40,384 bases of DNA from a virus. Taxonomy: Duplodnaviria; Heunggongvirae; Uroviricota; Caudoviricetes. The position numbers and the translations under genes are program-made. The notes beneath the pieces were generated by a model that made no database searches, was not told where the DNA came from, and saw only the letters and a list, made by a program, of their open reading frames with translations. Within the stretch, counting starts at the first letter, position 1. Every line of letters starts with the position of its first letter. Shown here in pieces: positions 1 through 36,702 of the stretch. The stretch is from the IMG/VR virus record IMGVR_UViG_2718218168_000007, positions 1 through 40,384 of that record, one strand, 5' to 3'.

Positions 1-540
1 TTCATGAAGTCCACTTATTGATAGAATTGAAAATCATCAATAACATAGAGGTTGTATACATGCTATCGTTCCATCGATAATTCACAGATACATTATTCGT
101 AGAGGCACTCCAGGAATGCTTTCAGTTATTCATTGGGGTTAAAAGAATTTACATGAATAATGCCAGTGAAGACTAACCAGAATAATAAACTCAAGAATAA
201 GATTATCATCAATTATAACGTCAAATATATAAGATATTTATTTCGCTTTTCGGTAGGAAAAACCGAAGAATTGAATAACGGCCAGTATGTTGGTAATGCT
301 GCCAACTTACTGATTTAGTGTATGATGGTGATTTTAAGGTGCTTGCGTGGCTTCCATTTCCATCAGATGTCCTTCCTGCTCCGCTACTGAAGGCGTGGTG
401 CGTAACGGCAAAAGCACTGCCGGGCATCAGCGCTATCTCTGCTCTCATTGCCGTAAAACATGGCAACTACAGTTCACTTACACCGCCTCTCAGCCCGGTA
501 CGCACCAGAAAATCATTGATATGGCCATGAATGGCGTCGG

Positions 541-1844
<1,304 letters not shown>

Positions 1845-1904
1845 GTCTTTAAGTGATAAGCATAAACCGCAGCACGATCTTCTTGCATACGACGTGCTAC
1901 GGTT

Positions 1905-2459
1905 TCATTTATCTCCGACCGGAAACTTCTTATACAGTGTCGATATACCAACATCATAGATGATCGCCACCTTTTGGCGAGGAACGCCTGATGCAATTAA
2001 TCGCCCGGCCTGCGCCCATTGTTCTGGTGTAAGTTTGGGACGACGTCCACCAATTCGTCCCTGTGCGCGAGCTGCTTCCAGTCCAGCTTTTGTTCGTTCA
2101 ACAATCAGTTCACGCTCCATTTCAGCCAGGGCACCCATCACATGAAAGAAAAAGCGCCCCATTGGGGTACTGGTATCAATTGAATCCGTCAGACTACGAA
2201 AGTTGATGCCTCGTTCGCGCAACTCCTCCACCAGCACGACAAGATGCCGCATACTGCGCCCCAGTCGGTCCAGTTTCCAGACCACCAGCGTGTCACCTGC
2301 CGATAATGTCCTGAGCAGCTTTTTCAGTCCTGGTCTGTCGGACTTTGTACCGCTTATCTTGTCTTCAAAAATCAGCTCACATCCTGCACACTCCAGCGCA
2401 TTACGCTGTAATTCCGTATTCTGGTTATTTGTTGATACGCGGACATAGCCAATAAGCAT
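1905..2459 (-). CDS. pin: Serine DNA invertase, Pin/Gin/Cin/Hin family
   Basis: MLIGYVRVSTNNQNTELQ...LVVWKLDRLGRSMRHL...GRIGGRRPKLT is the resolvase/invertase catalytic core plus C-terminal HTH. Start placed at the internal ATG (2459) preceded by AGGGGA rather than the ORF-track start at 2504. Confidence 0.9.
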   Translation of the reverse strand: MLIGYVRVSTNNQNTELQRNALECAGCELIFEDKISGTKSDRPGLKKLLRTLSAGDTLVVWKLDRLGRSMRHLVVLVEELRERGINFRSLTDSIDTSTPMGRFFFHVMGALAEMERELIVERTKAGLEAARAQGRIGGRRPKLTPEQWAQAGRLIASGVPRQKVAIIYDVGISTLYKKFPVGDK

Positions 2460-2486
2460 GAGCATTCCCCTGAGTAAAAACCGGGG

Positions 2487-2879
2487 ATGATGCCAGTTAG
2501 CCATAATCTCTGCATTTTCTTAAACGTTGGTTTGGGAGAAGCGGCTAAAAGGAATGTAGGGACAGGGGCGAATCAGATACCTGATATGGGTAGCTTCACG
2601 CTTTCTGTTTCAGGTACTGGATATCAAAAATTACCATCAGGTTTTATTCTTCAGTGGGGCTCAATCGGCGCTCCAGGCATTGCACAGGATGTAGTAACCC
2701 ATTTCCCAATTGCATTTCCAAACAGATGTCTGCGTGTTTTGGTCTCACAAGACTATACACCAGATAGCGGGGCTGTTGGTTATATTGCCTGTGCAGGTTT
2801 TAGTCCCGACCCGGTTAAATTTATATCCAGAGCCAGTAATCCTGGCCTCGGCGCTTCATTTTTAGCGTTAGGCTGTTAA
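2487..2879 (+). CDS. Alternative tail-fibre C-terminal cassette (silent in this orientation)
   Basis: Plus-strand ORF inside the invertible segment with no independent start context; it begins at the left crossover site and encodes a fibre-tip-like sequence that would fuse to the constant fibre N-terminus after inversion. Confidence 0.5.
2515..2540. repeat. Left crossover site of the invertible segment (gix/pix-like)
   Basis: tttcttaaacgttggtttgggagaa resembles the recalled gix consensus; its 14-nt core ttggtttgggagaa recurs inverted at 4383-4396. Confidence 0.6.
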
Positions 2880-2900
2880 TTTAGCTATATGGAGTGAAAA

Positions 2901-3341
2901 ATGAATTACATATATTCCGCGACTACAAACTCTTTCTATCCGCTGGAGATGAAAGAGGATTACACTCAAGCTGACTCATGGCCAGATGATGCTGTTGAAG
3001 TTGATGAGCAAGTGTATATTGAGTTTTCCGGATTACCGCCGAAAGGAAAAATCCGTATCGCTGGAGAAAATGGTTTTCCTGCATGGTCCGAAATTCCACC
3101 ACCAACACATGAGGAACAAATTGCTGCAGCCGAACTGGAGAAGCAGCAATTGATTAATCAGGCCAACGATTATATGAACAGTAAACAATGGCCTGGTAAA
3201 GCGGCTATTGGTCGTCTGAAAGGTGACGAACTGGCGCAATATAATTTGTGGCTGGATTACCTGGACGCACTGGAACTGGTCGATACTTCCGGTGCGCCAG
3301 ATATTGAATGGCCTACGCCTCCGGCAGTTCAGGCCAGATGA
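2901..3341 (+). CDS. Tail fibre assembly protein (alternative copy, Tfa')
   Basis: 146-aa product with the Tfa-like C-terminus LWLDYLDALELVDTSGAPDIEWPTPP; convergent with the other tfa, as in Mu U/U'. Confidence 0.8.
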   Translation: MNYIYSATTNSFYPLEMKEDYTQADSWPDDAVEVDEQVYIEFSGLPPKGKIRIAGENGFPAWSEIPPPTHEEQIAAAELEKQQLINQANDYMNSKQWPGKAAIGRLKGDELAQYNLWLDYLDALELVDTSGAPDIEWPTPPAVQAR

Positions 3342-4688: not shown

Positions 4689-5273
4689 TTACTCCGGATA
4701 TTTAAAAATTACGTAGGTATGCGACGGGCAGAGTTTGTTAAGCACACACTCGACAACGGTGTCACCCCAGATACGCAGTGCGGAATCACAGGGATCGCCA
4801 CATGTCATCCAGGTGGTGTTGGTGGTGGCTGGCATGTTGACCTGCCAGTAATACCGCCATTCCGGTGCATTCACCGCGTCAGTACAGGCCGATGAGCAGG
4901 TGAAAGTGCTTTTGTCGTATCGCGTGATGGTGGCATCTGGTCTGCCCAGGGCAGCAAGCTGTGCAAGATAAAAATCCTCGTTGATGCCGCCCGCCAGGTT
5001 AACCTTCGCATCCAGCCGTTGCTGACGCTGGCGAAGGGTCTGCGTTCCCGCCGGAATACATTCATCCGGCAGACCGCACAGACGCTCCCAGCGGTTTATC
5101 AGTTCAGTGGTGGTGCGCGGATCCAGCTCCCGCATCAGGGCATCCGCACGCTGATGAACACGGGTTAATGACGGTGCCGCACCGGCAATCGCCGGATCGC
5201 TGGCTGACCACGCCGGACCGGGCGGCAACAGTGCCGATAACAGGCGGATGTAATCATCGTTTGTCACGTCCAT
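4689..5273 (-). CDS. Phage tail protein, DUF2313 family (Mu gp48 / e14 YmfQ-like)
   Basis: 194-aa product recalled as YmfQ-like; sits between the baseplate J gene and the fibre gene. Confidence 0.7.
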
Positions 5274-6322
5274 GAAATCGTCCCCAGTACCGCCAGTTCG
5301 TTTTTCGCAATGGAGATATTGTCCACCGGTGCAAGCAACTGATGGCTGTATTCCCCGTTCGCACCGGAAATCGCCTCACTGATACGCGATACCTTGAGTT
5401 CTCCCTGCGGATAACCATCACGCAGCAGGAACGAACGCAACTCCGCGGTAATGGCAGCCCGTATTTCTGGTGTGTCCGGCGTCACGCGGATATGAAAATC
5501 CACCGTATGTGCCACCGGCCTGAATACATACAAATCAGAGCCTGCCACCGGGGCCAGTGGCCAGATATGTTGTCTTGCTGCCGTTTCCGTTGACTCTTCC
5601 GGAATGGGATTAATCAGGTCACTGCTGGCAATCATCACACCGACAGTTCCCGTTCCCATCCAGTGACGGTATGTCCATGCGCGGGTAATGCCGGGCACTT
5701 CTTTAGCCCAGACGACATAGTCCCCGTCAGCCCCGCCCTGAGGCGTCCAGTAATACCGCTCAATGACGCGGGCGCGCCACGTTTCCAGCTCTTCAGTATC
5801 AAATCCACCTGTCAGGGTATCTGCCACGCCGGAAGACGGCAGACCATTAACCGGCGTGACCAGGATTAATGACGTACCGTCGTCAGCGTTACCGACCGCG
5901 CCTGCACTTGAGCAGGCGATCGGCACGCGCAGGACACCACCGGAGCTGGTTGCATCGGCAGTTGCCGTGTACTGAACCAGGTCATCGCGCTGAATAACAC
6001 TCCCGGCGGTCACCTTCAGGCCATCGCTGACACCTTCCCAGCGCATATACCCGCTGGCAGCCGTGGCCCCCTTGCGCGGACACCGTTTCATCGCAGCATG
6101 TCGCGCCAGCCAGGACTCATCGCACAGGTCAGGCAGAATGTTCATTGCCAGATAATCGATGTACCCGTAAACCGTATGCAGCGCCGCCGCATACACCTTT
6201 GCCCGCACGTCTTCATCCATGCGCCGGAGCGTGTCGCTGACGTCCAGCCTGGCGAATAAATCGTTACGGAGCATACTGATATTTTCTGTCAGCGTCGGGC
6301 GCTGAAATTCACTGTCCGCCAT
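5264..6322 (-). CDS. Baseplate J-like protein (Mu gp47-like)
   Basis: 352-aa product at the conserved position in a Mu-type baseplate cluster; family assignment by recall. Confidence 0.75.
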
Positions 6323-32116: not shown

Positions 32117-32662
32117 TCATATTGCCCCCAGCATGGTGGTGACCATCGCCATCAATGGACCAGCCAGGTCCGGGTCCACACGAAACATCGACACAATGCC
32201 TTCACTCATCTCCTTCAGTTTCTGGTGGCGTGGTGCGTTGAGAATGACAGCCTGTTTTGCCTCACTGAGTTCCTTTTCCATTTCAGCCAACCGAGTCATG
32301 AAGCTATCCTGCTCAACCAGGTAACCGCGATATTCCAGCGGTAGTACCGCCAGAATTGCCGGGGTCAGTTCACGCACGTTATTTCGGTATTTTTCAGAAT
32401 CGAATTTGTTATCGAGGAAGCGGAACAGCTTCTGGCGTGCACGGCTGACATCATCAGGGAAATCGATGGTGCCGCCGCCCTGCTCCCGATACTCATTCAC
32501 AATGAGTGCGGCAACAACATCCTGATTATCTGCAGCCGACCAGGCGCGGACGGCATCACGGATTTTTTCGTGGCCTGGCACCTGTTTTATTTGAGAACGA
32601 TTTATCACCGCAGTCGGGCTAAATCCGCTAGTCTGTTGGTATGTAAGTGGTTGCATAGTCAT
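32117..32662 (-). CDS. ydaT: YdaT-like protein (cII-position regulator)
   Basis: 181-aa product with NEYREQGGG and RELTPAILAVLP motifs recalled from Rac YdaT; immediately downstream of the cro-like gene. Confidence 0.55.
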   Translation of the reverse strand: MTMQPLTYQQTSGFSPTAVINRSQIKQVPGHEKIRDAVRAWSAADNQDVVAALIVNEYREQGGGTIDFPDDVSRARQKLFRFLDNKFDSEKYRNNVRELTPAILAVLPLEYRGYLVEQDSFMTRLAEMEKELSEAKQAVILNAPRHQKLKEMSEGIVSMFRVDPDLAGPLMAMVTTMLGAI

Positions 32663-32686
32663 TGCCTTATCAGTTAACGCCGCAGT

Positions 32687-32914
32687 TTAGGCGGCAGAAT
32701 TACTCGCGTTAAACAATGGTGCGAGGTCGGGACGAATATCTGCTGGTTTAATCTTTCCACCAGTGGCTGAGACAATTTTCATTACATAGCGGGCATCAAT
32801 TCCGCCACCGTGTAGCCAACGCCAAACTGTGGGTTGGGCTACACCGCATAGATCTGCCAGTCGTTTTTGACTACCTGTAATACTGATTGCGAGTTGAATG
32901 GTTTGATTTGTCAT
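32687..32914 (-). CDS. Cro-like HTH regulator (YdaS/Cro type)
   Basis: 75-aa product with HTH LADLCGVAQPTVWRWL; divergent from cI; start at the ATG preceded by AGGA. Confidence 0.7.
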   Translation of the reverse strand: MTNQTIQLAISITGSQKRLADLCGVAQPTVWRWLHGGGIDARYVMKIVSATGGKIKPADIRPDLAPLFNASNSAA

Positions 32915-33024
32915 TATCAATTCCTATTGGTATTGCAATGAATGAATAATAGCAATACGTATTAATCCAAGCAATAGCAAAACGTGTTTTGACCATCAAT
33001 ACGCAAGCGTATAAATTAAAACTT
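32915..33024. promoter_or_regulatory. OR-type operator/promoter region (divergent PR and PRM)
   Basis: Minus strand has TTGCTT, 17 nt, TATTAT toward cro; plus strand has TTGACC, 15 nt, TATAAA ending about 10 nt before the cI ATG; several ATAGCAAT-type motifs shared with the OL region. Confidence 0.55.
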
Positions 33025-33717
33025 ATGAAAAAAGAAACTCTTGCTGATCGCTTAAACCTAGCGATGGAACAATCTGGAATGTCTCAAGGCGCTCTTGCAA
33101 AGGCGTCTGGCGTAGCTCAACCCACAATCTGGAGACTGACAAGCGGCAACGCGCGCGGCTCAACAAAAATTGTTGAAATAGCTAATGCATTGGGTGTTCG
33201 AACAGAATGGCTCTCATCAGGCATAGGCCCGATGAGAAATGACGGTCAACAATCAGGGAAGCCTGCTGTCAGCCATTCCAAATACTTCAAAATTGACGTT
33301 CTTGATATAGAAGTCAGTGCCGGGCCAGGTGTAATCAACCGTGAGTTTGTAGAAGTTCTACGCTCGGTTGAGTACTCGTTTGACGATGCTCGTCACATGT
33401 TCGATGGCAGGAAGGCGGAAAATATCCGCATCATTAACGTGCGAGGTGACAGCATGTCAGGGACGATCGAACCAGGTGACCTGCTGTTCGTTGATATCAC
33501 TGTTAAATCTTTCGACGGTGATGGCATCTATGCGTTTCTATATGACGACACCGCCCATGTAAAGCGCCTGCAAATGATGAAGGATAAACTGCTGGTTATC
33601 TCTGATAACAAAAGCTACTCACCGTGGGACCCGATCGAGAAAGACGAGATGAACCGGGTATTCATCTTCGGTAAGGTTATTGGGAGCATGCCGCAGACGT
33701 ATAGGAAACATGGTTAA
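33025..33717 (+). CDS. cI: CI-type repressor (HTH plus S24 LexA-like autopeptidase domain)
   Basis: N-terminal HTH MSQGALAKASGVAQPTIWRL and C-terminal S24 motifs (GDSMSGTIEPGDLLFVD, HVKRL); start at the ATG at 33025 with essentially no leader. Confidence 0.85.
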   Translation: MKKETLADRLNLAMEQSGMSQGALAKASGVAQPTIWRLTSGNARGSTKIVEIANALGVRTEWLSSGIGPMRNDGQQSGKPAVSHSKYFKIDVLDIEVSAGPGVINREFVEVLRSVEYSFDDARHMFDGRKAENIRIINVRGDSMSGTIEPGDLLFVDITVKSFDGDGIYAFLYDDTAHVKRLQMMKDKLLVISDNKSYSPWDPIEKDEMNRVFIFGKVIGSMPQTYRKHG

Positions 33718-34005
33718 TCCCATGTCTAAATAATAGACAATATTAATGATGGCGATAGTCAAAGCTCTCGCCATGACACTTTATGTTGTATTGAATTATG
33801 CCTCTCTACCACTATATATAGCAAACAACTTTCCAGTACCTCTCCCCAGAATAATATGCTGTCCAATGAGGATAAACAGCAATAAATCCTATCGTTTTAT
33901 AAGTGACGGATGTACATAAAGTTATTAATATGTACTAACAGTTACCTTTCAGGTAAAATGCAAACATTACACAACTGGTTATTTATACAGTTAAGGGGGC
34001 ATAAC

Positions 34006-34476
34006 ATGGCTTACTCAGCTGCAGCGGTTGCTAATGCCTTCATTGAAAAGGCTTTAAAGGGTGAGTTAAAGAATCTGACTCCAATGAAGCTCCAGAAGCT
34101 TCTTTTTTATACTCAATCATGGCATTTAAAGTTACGCGACAACACACCGCTTTTTGATGATCTTTTCGCCAGATGGAAATTCGGGCCTGTTATTCCACCG
34201 CTTTATCATATGTTGAAGAAGTATGGCGCAAACGAAATCACTGAAAAGATTAGCGTCATCTTAGAGTGTGATGGCGAATTAAAAAGAATCACCCCTACAA
34301 TTCAAAAAGATGATGAAGAAGCTCAAGCTCTTATCAATAAAATCATCGAAGTATATGGGAAATTTTCAGGTACTGAACTGTCTAACTTAACACATGCGCC
34401 TGGTACAGCATGGAGCAAGGGAAGTGCAGATGGTGGCCCCATTTCTCATGAGGATATGGCGAAGCATATTCACTAA
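34006..34476 (+). CDS. Panacea-domain (DUF4065)-like protein, putative antitoxin/sensor, in the rexA-equivalent slot
   Basis: Motifs MKLQKLLFYTQSWHL and FARWKFGPVIPPLY fit my recollection of the DUF4065 core; start at the ATG preceded by AAGGGGG (ORF-track start 33910 rejected); visibly AT-rich. Confidence 0.6.
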   Translation: MAYSAAAVANAFIEKALKGELKNLTPMKLQKLLFYTQSWHLKLRDNTPLFDDLFARWKFGPVIPPLYHMLKKYGANEITEKISVILECDGELKRITPTIQKDDEEAQALINKIIEVYGKFSGTELSNLTHAPGTAWSKGSADGGPISHEDMAKHIH

Positions 34477-34859
34477 TGAAGTCGTTTGATAGCATATCTA
34501 TACCCAGTGGCACAAATGTAGGCTCATCGAAAGTATCAAGTGCCGAAGATGAGCCGCCAATTACAGAAAGAATATCCAGAGGTGACGACCTCAATGCTCA
34601 AAAAGCGGCAGATGCCAAGTCAAACAGGCAACTTCGTGAGATCTTGGCAGAAAAAGCGTACCGTGTCGTAAAAAAATCACTTTACGGATGGGCTTTGTTT
34701 CTTTTCTTTCAAGGCTGGTTTTCTATCATTGGGATAAAGGTTTTTTCCGATAAGGTAGTTTTGGCTGTAACAACAGCTGTTACTCTTAATGTATTCGCTG
34801 CTTTTCTTGGTGTTATCAGGGGATTATTCCCAGCTGCCAGTAGAAAAGATAAAAGTTAA
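34476..34859 (+). CDS. Small membrane protein with two C-terminal TM helices, putative toxin/effector, in the rexB-equivalent slot
   Basis: 127-aa product with a hydrophilic N-terminal half, then LYGWALFLFFQGWFSIIGI and VVLAVTTAVTLNVFAAFLGVI; start overlaps the upstream stop (TAATG). Confidence 0.6.
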   Translation: MKSFDSISIPSGTNVGSSKVSSAEDEPPITERISRGDDLNAQKAADAKSNRQLREILAEKAYRVVKKSLYGWALFLFFQGWFSIIGIKVFSDKVVLAVTTAVTLNVFAAFLGVIRGLFPAASRKDKS

Positions 34860-34886
34860 CCCGGCCACCGTGCCGGGTTTTCTTTT
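34860..34886 (+). terminator. Intrinsic terminator ending the cI / Panacea-like / membrane-protein transcript
   Basis: CCCGGC, loop caccgt, GCCGGG, then TTTTCTTTT, immediately after the stop at 34859. Confidence 0.8.
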
Positions 34887-35007
34887 GTCCCCTCCCCTCA
34901 TCACACACCACTCAAAAAACCACCACACCTCACTTCAGTTATCGCTATGCGATGCAAGTCACAAAATTAATTCTTTTTGCTATCAAACATTTAATATCAA
35001 AACACAT

Positions 35008-35056
35008 CTAGCAATAGCAATAAGTATTGATATCATCAATAGCAATAGCTATTATC
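35008..35056 (+). promoter_or_regulatory. OL/PL-type operator-promoter
   Basis: TTGATA (35027-35032), 17-nt spacer, TATTAT (35050-35055), overlapped by two agcaatagcaat repeats that also occur between cro and cI. Confidence 0.55.
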
Positions 35057-35332
35057 ACCATGTCGCAACAACACAACGATACGGCAATCACCTGATTCAC
35101 CGTTGCGATGACCGCTTAGATCCGCAGCTTGAATTTCAGCAGGCTCCGGGGAGTGCGAGGGGTGAAGCGGACGCGTGAACGTCGGTGTGACCAGCTGAAA
35201 TCAACTCAACACTTCATACCTCAGTCGCTTCAACGAGGCGGCTTAGTTATGACAACCGGCGGCCATCCACCGCCTGAATACGCGCAGAAGTCTTTATATG
35301 TTCAGCAGCCCAGCTTACGGGCAGGAGTTTTT

Positions 35333-35539
35333 ATGGTTCATCAACATTACGGAACGCAGACCGTTAATCGCGGTGCGGTCATGCCAGGAATGCTGGTCAA
35401 ACACAAAGATGGTACCTGGACTGCATCAGCTAATTTACGCGGACGGCTTTATCTGCATCGCGGCATCGAGCGCACTTATACCCGTGACTTGCTCGTGGAA
35501 GTTTTTCTCGACGGACGCGGCAACGGCCTGAATCACTAA
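35333..35539 (+). CDS. Hypothetical small protein in the kil/cIII position
   Basis: 68-aa ORF from the ATG preceded by AGGAG ([14 protein letters not shown]...); the longer ORF-track start at 35129 lacks an SD; no family recognised. Confidence 0.4.
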
Positions 35540-35614
35540 CCCCCTTTCCTGTTTTCCTAATCAGCCTGGCATTTCGCGGGCGATATTTCCACAGCCATTT
35601 TCAGGAGTTCAGCC

Positions 35615-35911
35615 ATGAACGCTTATTACATTCAGGATCGTCTTGAGGCTCAGAGCTGGGCGCGTCACTACCAGCAGATCGCCCGTGAAGAGAAAGAGGC
35701 AGAACTGGCAGACGACATGGAAAAAGGCCTGCCCCAGCACCTGTTTGAATCGCTATGCATCGATCATTTGCAACGCCACGGGGTCAGCAAAAAAGCCATT
35801 ACCCGTGCGTTCGATGACGATGTTGAGTTTCAGGGGCGCATGGCAGAACACATCCGGTACATGGTTGAAACCATTGCTCACCACCAGGTTGATATTGATT
35901 CAGAGGTATAA
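35615..35911 (+). CDS. gam: Gam (RecBCD inhibitor)
   Basis: [56 protein letters not shown] is near-identical to lambda GamS as recalled. Confidence 0.95.
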
Positions 35912-35916
35912 AACGG

Positions 35917-36702
35917 ATGAGTACAGCACTCGCAACGCTGGCTGGGAAGCTGGCTGAACGTGTCGGCATGGATTCTGTCGACCCACAGGAACTGATCACC
36001 ACTCTTCGCCAGACGGCATTTAAAGGTGATGCCAGCGATGCGCAGTTCATCGCATTGTTGATCGTCGCCAACCAGTACGGCCTTAATCCGTGGACGAAAG
36101 AAATTTACGCCTTCCCTGACAAGCAGAACGGCATCGTTCCGGTGGTGGGCGTTGATGGCTGGTCCCGCATCATCAATGAAAACCAGCAGTTTGATGGCAT
36201 GGACTTTGAGCAGGACAATGAATCCTGCACATGCCGGATTTACCGCAAAGACCGCAATCATCCGATCTGCGTTACCGAGTGGATGGATGAATGCCGCCGC
36301 GAACCATTCAAAACCCGCGAAGGCAGAGAAATCACGGGGCCGTGGCAGTCGCATCCCAAACGGATGTTACGGCATAAAGCCATGATTCAGTGTGCCCGTC
36401 TCGCCTTCGGATTTGCTGGTATCTATGACAAGGATGAAGCCGAGCGCATTGTCGAAAATACCGCATACACTGCAGAACGTCAGCCGGAACGCGACATCAC
36501 TCCGGTTAACGATGAAACCATGCAGGAGATTAACACTCTGCTGATTGCCCTGGATAAAACATGGGATGACGACTTATTGCCGCTCTGTTCCCAGATATTT
36601 CGCCGTGACATTCGCGCATCGTCAGAACTGACACAGGCCGAAGCAGTGAAAGCTCTTGGATTCCTGAAACAGAAAGCCACTGAGCAGAAGGTGGCAGCAT
36701 GA
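35917..36702 (+). CDS. bet: Bet (Red-beta single-strand annealing protein)
   Basis: 261-aa product near-identical to lambda Bet as recalled. Confidence 0.95.

Follow-up and report, generated by a model that had tools for sequence, protein, structure and literature searches.

Antitoxins with a Panacea (DUF4065) domain, termed PanA, are paired with many families of toxins (PanT), and nine such pairs have been validated (Kurata et al. 2022, PMC8832971). Three of the validated PanTs are membrane toxins, one of which, from E. coli STEC O31 (toxin cluster T3), depolarized and permeabilized the membrane and was neutralized by its own PanA; a T3 member from V. cholerae is also toxic (PMC8832971). Here we describe two genes within positions 33718-34886 of a 40,384-nucleotide stretch of viral DNA (IMG/VR record IMGVR_UViG_2718218168_000007, hereafter the window), which lie downstream of a cI-type repressor gene. 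Based on the analyses below, these genes, panA and panT, are probably a PanA-PanT type II toxin-antitoxin cassette that has a toxin of the T3 class and SOS-gated expression, with a role in abortive infection or competition being the one that we favor.

A second described system of this kind is the PanAT pair of Bartonella choladocola/apis (toxin cluster T12, node D11), in which a membrane-depolarizing toxin is also neutralized directly by a stand-alone Panacea (PMC8832971, PMC10440598). In a model that has mutational support, the Bartonella Panacea contacts the N-terminal region of its toxin and the helix that precedes the transmembrane segment (PMC10440598). The T12 toxin falls in a separate cluster that its authors call only possibly homologous to T3, and we set it beside PanT by description.

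The pair in the window has the same layout as the STEC O31 pair (PanA WP_000287252.1 and PanT WP_000019185.1), in which a Panacea gene is upstream of the gene for a small toxin whose N-terminal part is charged and whose transmembrane helices are C-terminal. The STEC O31 genes are separated by a 22-nt gap and were scored 'NotPhage', whereas the genes in the window overlap by 1 nt and are part of a prophage immunity operon. The window pair is a different sequence variant from that of STEC O31, and the two are likened via other members of the T3 cluster. The two genes of the window are as follows.

34006-34476, + strand: panA, a stand-alone Panacea (DUF4065) antitoxin of 156 aa (PF13274, phrog_1281).
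34476-34859, + strand: panT, a predicted T3-type small membrane toxin of 127 aa (homology to T3 members, hydropathy, AlphaFold).

An earlier note on this DNA had read the first gene as Panacea/DUF4065, and profile searches agree with that reading. PanA matched PF13274 (SocA_Panacea) over residues 29-136 of 156 with an E value of 5e-21 and a score of 76.1 bits (gathering cutoff, 25.7), it matched phrog_1281 at 9e-42, and it contains the motifs MKLQKLLFYTQSW and FARWKFGPVIPPLY. The gene already carries the RefSeq label 'Panacea domain-containing protein', and it is preceded by a Shine-Dalgarno sequence, AAGGGGG, at 33993-33999. When PanA was used as the query in a sequence search of the PDB, nothing meaningful was found.

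The start codon of panT overlaps the stop codon of panA by 1 nt (TAATG, 34474-34478), and panT has no Shine-Dalgarno sequence of its own. The G+C fraction of both genes is 0.41 as opposed to 0.51 for the window, so that the AT-rich genes and the overlap that the earlier note had described are both seen. Hydropathy analysis predicted hydrophobic segments at residues ∼69-89 and 94-118 of PanT, with a net charge of +4 just ahead of the first segment and an isoelectric point of 9.8 for the protein. An AlphaFold model of PanT (mean predicted local distance difference test score of 66) has a disordered region at residues 1-38, a helix at 39-84, a loop, and a second helix at 92-117. The two methods agree on a pair of C-terminal helices, as had been predicted in the earlier note, which described a 127-aa product with a hydrophilic N-terminal half and two C-terminal transmembrane helices. 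The disordered N terminus of PanT is acidic. Across the PanT family, this N terminus is variable, a basic amphipathic juxtamembrane stretch is conserved (R.LRE.F..KAYKV.[RK]K.LYGW), the first hydrophobic helix is variable, and a short loop leads to a second helix in which the motif TLNVFAAFLGVIRGLF is invariant.

PanT had no match in Pfam (E ≤ 1), NCBIfam, or PADLOC, and it matched the phage protein family phrog_33656 with an E value of 3e-42. The family of proteins related to PanT contains 304 clusters at 50% identity (E ≤ 1e-3). A Foldseek comparison of the PanT model with viral structures returned nothing below an E value of 0.77, as expected of a helical hairpin, and a search of the PDB with the toxin profile found nothing meaningful.

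By tblastn analysis, PanT is 45-47% identical (E values of 5e-31 to 9e-30) to the toxins of three strains that are listed as T3 in Dataset S1, namely Tatumella morbirosei LMG 23360, T. saanichensis NML 06-3099, and Phaseolibacter flectens ATCC 12775 (loci L011, L013, and L014). The distances between PanA and the toxin at these three loci (8, 15, and -4 nt) equal the values given in Dataset S1 (PMC8832971). By this homology PanT is predicted to be a T3-type PanT, and the proposal that the second gene is shaped like a small membrane toxin is supported by its relationship to the published cluster. Such a pair is not novel in kind, as the combination of a PanA with a membrane-depolarizing toxin, including a validated E. 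coli pair, was published in 2022 (PMC8832971).

A scan of species-representative genomes for the toxin family identified 24 loci, and in all 24 a Panacea gene is found directly upstream and on the same strand, with PanA homologs that are 50-77% identical. An upstream Panacea gene is likewise present in four of four distant representatives (E values of 3e-21 to 1.7e-8). The pairwise distances of PanA and PanT are strongly correlated (Mantel r = 0.88, a value reached in 0 of 2000 permutations), and both genes are under purifying selection, as their nonsynonymous divergence (dN) from diverged copies is 0.17-0.45 and their synonymous sites are saturated. Homologous pairs are present in many genera, and the elements that carry the module are prophages, an integrative conjugative element, and genomic islands. 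The relatives in Pantoea, Phaseolibacter, and Serratia marcescens are in prophage or prophage-remnant regions, those of Pantoea and S. marcescens at a prophage end, and the Pantoea cassette adjoins a umuDC-like operon. Four diverged E. coli variants that were inspected have accessions and gene spacings other than those of the STEC O31 pair. No homolog of the toxin was found in 72,556 plasmids (PLSDB, E ≤ 1e-3), and near-identical DNA was not found in phage records, where only a 57%-identical version is present, in Stx2a phages.

One copy of the module with 97.8% identity is on a circular 44.8-kb record designated as a plasmid, pCE-O153H30-A (L002, NZ_CP172337.1). This record carries the same early, immunity, and integrase genes as well as an Avs2 defense gene just past the integrase, and as the toxin is absent from the PLSDB plasmids, the record is probably a prophage that was excised or circularized and not a true plasmid. 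In the integrative conjugative element of E. coli AH19B041 (L043), a related PanA has been kept and the toxin gene has been deleted (compare loci L005 and L042). In RM11911 (L007), the annotation gives PanA a length of 257 aa and lists no toxin gene apart from it. The orphan antitoxins of L043 and L007 are consistent with a toxin-first decay of a toxin-antitoxin pair.

Analysis of the DNA upstream of panA points to a way in which expression of the pair may be controlled. The relevant features are the following.

33900-33972, + strand: cassette-borne 5' region with weak promoter-like elements (aligned with other cassettes).
33973-33992, no strand assigned: LexA (SOS) box, AACTGGTTATTTATACAGTT, the best position weight matrix match in the window, which abuts the panA Shine-Dalgarno sequence.

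SOS-box palindromes were recognized by reading the 5' regions of 21 cassettes, and sites were scored with a LexA matrix derived from 27 E. coli SOS boxes (training range of 12.8-26.4 bits, median of 20.0); the LexA consensus taCTGtatatatataCAGta is quoted in PMC7556043. The box at 33973-33992 scored 24.5 bits, which is the top score in the window, as compared with 13.9 bits for the next-best site. The strict pattern CTGKW9CAG occurs once in the window, with 0.03 occurrences expected. A box of at least 14.6 bits was present within 250 nt upstream of panA in 17 of the 24 loci, against a background of ∼0.01 per locus, and these boxes vary in both sequence and position (-13 to -154). Including that of the window, the box-bearing lineages number nine at the genus level (Escherichia, Dryocola, an Enterobacterales metagenome-assembled genome (L010), Serratia, Phaseolibacter, Pantoea, Erwinia, Pseudomonas, and Stutzerimonas). 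The cassette of Serratia sp. Ag1 has a near-perfect LexA box 16 nt after an extended -10 promoter that matches at 10/12. Three cassettes that are box-less (L004, L006, and L008) are found ∼260 nt behind a same-strand DinI-family gene, itself preceded by LexA boxes in tandem (15-26 bits), and in L004, the only one of these scanned, there was no terminator between the DinI-family gene and panA.

The last ∼105 nt before panA in the window align with the L004, L006, and L008 cassettes, which are in unrelated contexts, and the DNA further upstream does not. As only these ∼105 nt are common to cassettes elsewhere, the cassette brings its own 5' region. The promoter-like elements within it are GTGACG (33903-33908) and TAATAT (33926-33931), which are separated by a 17-nt spacer, and an alternative -10 element, TAAAAT (33954-33959); a promoter scan at 9/12 found none in 33900-33972. 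This region also contains a perfect 6-bp palindrome, TTACCT-ttc-AGGTAA, at 33942-33956, which forms a hairpin in the predicted fold and which is kept as GTTACC-N5-GGTAA in L004, L006, and L008. The palindrome may be an operator for some factor or a hairpin in the 5'-untranslated region. The cassette 5' region folds no better than shuffled sequences (z = -1.4).

All upstream promoters are separated from the ribosome-binding site of panA by the LexA box, and because of this position we predict that panAT expression is probably SOS-gated and not simply linked to that of the repressor. The statement in the earlier note that the pair is expressed together with the repressor is therefore doubtful in that form, as a strong LexA box intervenes. 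LexA and SOS are absent from both PanAT papers (checked for PMC8832971), and we did not find a link of DUF4065/Panacea to LexA in the literature searched. A conserved LexA box ahead of panAT thus appears to be previously unreported.

The window is a lambdoid prophage that is apparently complete and SOS-inducible, and its + strand matches the leftward direction of lambda. A prophage in E. coli S51 is 100% identical to the window over 33718-34886 and over 33275-35540, and its integration site adjoins tRNA-Thr/proA. The gene order is Cro-like, cI, spacer, panA, panT, terminator, OL/PL, kil, gam, bet, and exo. The features that surround the pair are listed here.

32687-32914, - strand: Cro-like gene (YdaS/YdaT family, see below).
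33025-33717, + strand: cI-type repressor gene with helix-turn-helix and S24 autopeptidase domains (Pfam Peptidase_S24 at 1.5e-18, HTH_3, RefSeq annotation).
33718-33899, + strand: distal AT-rich non-coding part of the cargo, limited to the 11 module-carrying complete E. coli genomes.
34858-34887, + strand: intrinsic terminator from a terminator scan, with its stem at 34858-34879 followed by the T-run TTTTCTTTT.
35013-35061, + strand: OL/PL region, a 49-nt block shared with OR (32948-32996) at 76% identity.

The interval between the cI stop codon and the terminator is a precise slot for interchangeable two-gene cargos. Sister prophages with other cargo lose homology to the window at 33718-33722, which is at the stop codon of cI, the left border of the slot, and regain it at 34859/34860, the base at which the terminator hairpin starts. 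The same hairpin is present in the prophage L055, which has an empty slot and in which homology restarts at the same base, so the possibility that the terminator belongs to the cargo was rejected. From these comparisons, we conclude that the terminator is part of the prophage backbone and bounds the slot on the right.

In public assemblies, 530 indexed blocks contain the exact toxin sequence, which lies between cI and kil in all ten of the places listed. The repressor alleles (229, 230, and 251 aa) and the chromosomal neighbors differ among these ten places, so that at least three alleles of the repressor are found alongside the module. In prophages of other immunity types, whose OL/PL sequence differs, identity to the window starts in the C-terminal half of cI and breaks at OL. 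When the region from the cI C terminus to kil was used as the query, matches were found in 2,239 of 5,426 complete E. coli genomes, and the module was present in only 11 of them. Elsewhere, the slot contains nothing (117 nt), DUF6932 and a 310-aa protein, a 353-aa protein and an ASCH protein, a Ser/Thr kinase and a PP2C phosphatase, or a BamE-like gene, a DUF7946 gene, or other hypothetical genes. The EH53 prophage has an identical repressor protein and a different cargo.

Three of the alternative cargo pairs were compared with PADLOC, in which the PDC systems are candidate defenses and not proven ones. One pair matched PDC-M63 A and B (7e-43 and 4e-42), another matched PDC-M11 A and B (3e-133 and 7e-52), and the kinase cargo matched mad6 (3e-39), PD-T4-6 (1e-34), and Stk2 (2e-27). 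Anti-phage defense is proven for PD-T4-6 and for Stk, a kinase of phage 933W. The interval between cI and N has been described as a mosaic hotspot that holds rexAB and bstA (PMC8585504).

These results bear on how the earlier note had placed the pair. It had assigned the genes to the rexAB slot, and they do share the strand of cI, with a backbone terminator right after panT. Given the sharp borders of homology with sister prophages and the PADLOC matches of the alternative cargos, the slot argument is stronger than was claimed. The succession of a terminator and then an OL/PL promoter was also confirmed, with a PL-like promoter (TTGATA-17-TATTAT) at 35027-35055 within the OL block. The description of the pair as directly downstream of cI is correct in strand and order, but a 288-nt spacer with 34% G+C intervenes between cI and panA. 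No + strand terminator was found in 33718-33899 or in the remainder of the interval between cI and panA when these were scanned, and 33718-33899 had no homology to the upstream regions of panAT cassettes elsewhere. Rfam gave no match within 32500-36000.

Two other prophages provide side observations on the slot. In the O145:H28 Stx2a phages (L003), the genes downstream of cI are a restriction-modification pair and then a 57%-identical PanAT, and the locus is composed of two tandem cargo units that each end in a near-copy of the immunity-region terminator. One copy (4851-4872) closes a unit made up of cI, an Eco57I-like methylase, and a BsuBI-PstI endonuclease, and the other (5850-5869) is found after the toxin. 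This tandem layout suggests that cargo is swapped by recombination at the terminator hairpin. In the EH53 prophage, which has the PDC-M63 cargo, a LexA-box-like sequence, TACTGTAATTTTATACAGCT, that scored 21.8 bits (L052:942-961) is inside the first cargo gene (DUF6932). SOS boxes may be recurrent in the cargo of the cI slot, or this site may be there by chance.

In lambda, this slot, which follows cI and precedes the terminator and OL/PL, is filled by RexA-RexB on the same strand. RexB is a protein with four transmembrane helices, RexA activates or senses for RexB, and we know of no LexA box for rexAB. RexA is an activator of RexB, whereas PanA is an inhibitor of PanT. Homology of the pair to RexAB was rejected, as a Pfam scan (E ≤ 1) gave only SocA_Panacea for the first gene and nothing for the second. 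The earlier note had called the pair analogous but unrelated to RexAB; the second half of this statement is upheld by the Pfam scan, and the analogy is limited to the outcome, which is membrane depolarization by a prophage membrane protein, as described for RexAB (PMC8585504) and predicted for PanAT.

The SocA-SocB system of Caulobacter (type VI) has an antitoxin with the same Panacea domain. SocB is soluble and inhibits the replication clamp, and SocA works as an adaptor for ClpXP and not as a stoichiometric binder. Assignment of the pair to SocAB was rejected, as PanA scored 92.8 bits with the NCBIfam SocA model NF047745 (cutoff of 190) and its partner is a membrane protein without a family match.

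Other genes of the window were recorded in the course of this analysis. No N-like or Nun-like gene is annotated or evident at 35062-35332, between PL and kil. The kil gene (35333-35539) is preceded by a GC-rich leader of ∼270 nt, and a Q antiterminator is present at 25963-26652. The PL leader had no Rfam match and folded no better than shuffled sequences (z = -0.8). The positions of Cro (32687-32914, - strand) and CII (32117-32656, - strand) are occupied by YdaS- and YdaT-family proteins. Despite their Pfam name of 'toxins', these proteins have been argued to be what corresponds to Cro and CII in this group of phages (PMC5917428, PMC9986795), and for this reason their genes are not to be counted as a second toxin-antitoxin pair. 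Other moron-like genes, which run against the direction of the late genes, encode a DUF3800 protein (24938-25741, + strand, between Q and the lysis genes), a LEM-3-like GIY-YIG nuclease (1071-1844, + strand, beside IS1 at the tail-fiber end), and the serum-survival lipoprotein Iss (23158-23451, + strand).

By analogy with the validated relatives, we propose that PanT would enter the inner membrane via its two C-terminal helices and dissipate the membrane potential. As in the Bartonella model, PanA would bind the cytoplasmic N-terminal and juxtamembrane part of PanT and so keep it harmless. Since panT lacks its own ribosome-binding site and begins within the stop codon of panA, synthesis of PanT would be tied to that of PanA and would probably be lower. 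The anatomy of the region also implies that all transcripts that reach panA, whether from PRM or from the weak cassette promoters, would have to cross the LexA site. LexA would keep expression of the pair low in the undamaged lysogen, and DNA damage, the same signal that induces the prophage, would raise it through cleavage of LexA. The Panacea protein lacks a DNA-binding domain, and those who discovered it consider autoregulation doubtful (PMC10440598); the host LexA could fill the regulatory gap that this leaves. SOS derepression would keep the antitoxin supplied once cleavage of cI shuts PRM, which may protect the lytic cycle of the prophage itself, and loss or inactivation of PanA would free PanT.

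A plausible role for such a pair is abortive infection or competition against other phages. This role is ranked first because of the slot, ahead of SOS-linked dormancy, addiction, and a non-toxic membrane function in that order, and the presence of PADLOC-type alternatives in the slot is good but circumstantial support for defense. BstA (PMC8585504), the 933W Stk kinase, PDC-M63, PDC-M11, and the PD-T4-6-like kinase with its PP2C phosphatase are found in the same hotspot and on the same strand as PanAT, within the repressor transcription unit, and the proteins themselves are unrelated. Anti-phage activity has been shown for BstA, Stk, and PD-T4-6, and PanAT is likened to them by its position. 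A more specific proposal is that PanAT(T3) is a prophage-borne, SOS-gated abortive infection or competition system in which LexA regulates the operon and PanA is a sensor that, when inactivated by a phage that invades or is co-resident, releases the toxin. We offer this version tentatively, as one that has a real but minority share of the probability.

Several points weigh against an SOS-gated defense module. Neither protein is matched significantly by PADLOC-DB v2.0.0, in which the closest match was NsnC for PanA (E = 0.014) and there was none for PanT, and we did not find a published anti-phage test of a membrane-toxin PanAT in the literature. The assignment to T3 is based on listed members other than the validated E. 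coli toxin (WP_000019185.1), some PanA-linked candidates were non-toxic or not neutralized (PMC8832971), and the action of the pair is predicted here from its sequence. As to regulation, the LexA matrix was built from boxes known from the literature, and both promoter candidates are weak (8/12 consensus, identified by eye). The LexA box is ∼7-55 nt downstream of the candidate start sites; repression would be partly by a roadblock, which can leak, and read-through from PRM may still express the pair. In addition, the Stx-phage module L003 is without a LexA box and is behind a terminator, so that SOS control is not universal.

The same pair could instead mediate an SOS-induced growth arrest or persistence like that of TisB or DinQ, with phage defense being incidental. 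DNA damage would derepress the operon, free PanT would lower the proton-motive force, and the cell would become dormant and drug-tolerant. Several small membrane toxins of E. coli are under LexA control (tisB, dinQ, and hokE), which is in line with this explanation; TisB/IstR-1, DinQ/AgrB, and HokE are chromosomal type I systems in which an RNA antitoxin controls a depolarizing peptide of ∼30 aa. PanAT resembles them in having a LexA box before a small inner-membrane protein that, in the case of PanT, is predicted to be depolarizing, but its antitoxin is a protein that is co-induced from the same operon, and its carrier is a prophage. The LexA box ahead of the cassette in nine genera, the linkage of some cassettes to DinI-family genes or their location beside umuDC-like genes, and the depolarization of membranes by a T3 toxin (PMC8832971) all fit a dormancy function. 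However, as toxin and antitoxin are co-induced and translationally coupled, induction alone need not free the toxin. Moreover, in all contexts examined, the cassettes of this clade belong to prophages or mobile elements and not to the core SOS regulon, and in the window the cassette is in a slot that otherwise holds defense-type cargo. We therefore regard dormancy as unlikely to be the function of the pair, and this applies equally to the sequence of events set out for it.

A role in addiction or stabilization, in which PanA would be less stable than PanT and cells that lose the prophage or the cassette would be killed, follows classical toxin-antitoxin logic. The tight co-inheritance of the pair (the Mantel correlation given above), the presence of the module on prophages, an integrative conjugative element, and genomic islands, and the orphan PanA genes where the toxin was deleted, as expected if antitoxin-first loss is lethal, can each be cited for it. 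However, an integrated prophage is rarely lost, which makes the benefit small, and no homolog was found among the PLSDB plasmids, where addiction modules are most useful; this role is accordingly less likely again than dormancy. The second protein might also be a non-toxic inner-membrane protein, either one that blocks the entry of superinfecting DNA or a lysis aid, with PanA as its chaperone or regulator. It is small, has two transmembrane helices, is in the position of a prophage moron, and has a weak similarity to a holin family (phrog_881, E = 0.039), and some PanA-linked partners are harmless in E. coli, such as one T1 E. coli pair that was scored 'not Toxic' (PMC8832971). The holin match is not significant, as no stretch was over threshold, and the prophage has its own holin, endolysin, and Rz, so that a holin assignment was rejected. 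Homology to T3, of which the tested members are toxic (E. coli STEC O31, validated; V. cholerae, toxic), and obligate pairing with an antitoxin domain across the family also argue against a harmless partner, and we consider this the least probable explanation by far. Abortive infection or competition remains the role that we favor.

Taken together, these results place the locus with PanAT systems of a known, experimentally characterized kind, and what is new here is the exact anatomy of the slot, with its defense-type alternatives, and the conserved LexA box. Panacea antitoxins neutralize dozens of unrelated toxins, and this locus bears on their natural trigger and role; a sensor role for Panacea has only been hypothesized by the authors who described the family (PMC10440598). 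The locus is also a tractable test case in E. coli, as it is a single-copy module in an inducible prophage, within a defense-type slot, and with a predicted LexA switch. If none of these proposals holds, the pair would be one more annotated toxin-antitoxin moron. If the prediction of LexA control is correct, it would explain how the operon of an antitoxin without a DNA-binding domain is regulated, and it would join a type II membrane toxin to the SOS response, a link that so far has been mainly one of type I peptides such as TisB. If the SOS-gated defense reading is correct as well, it would provide the first natural trigger and regulatory logic for Panacea and would add this family to the known defense systems.

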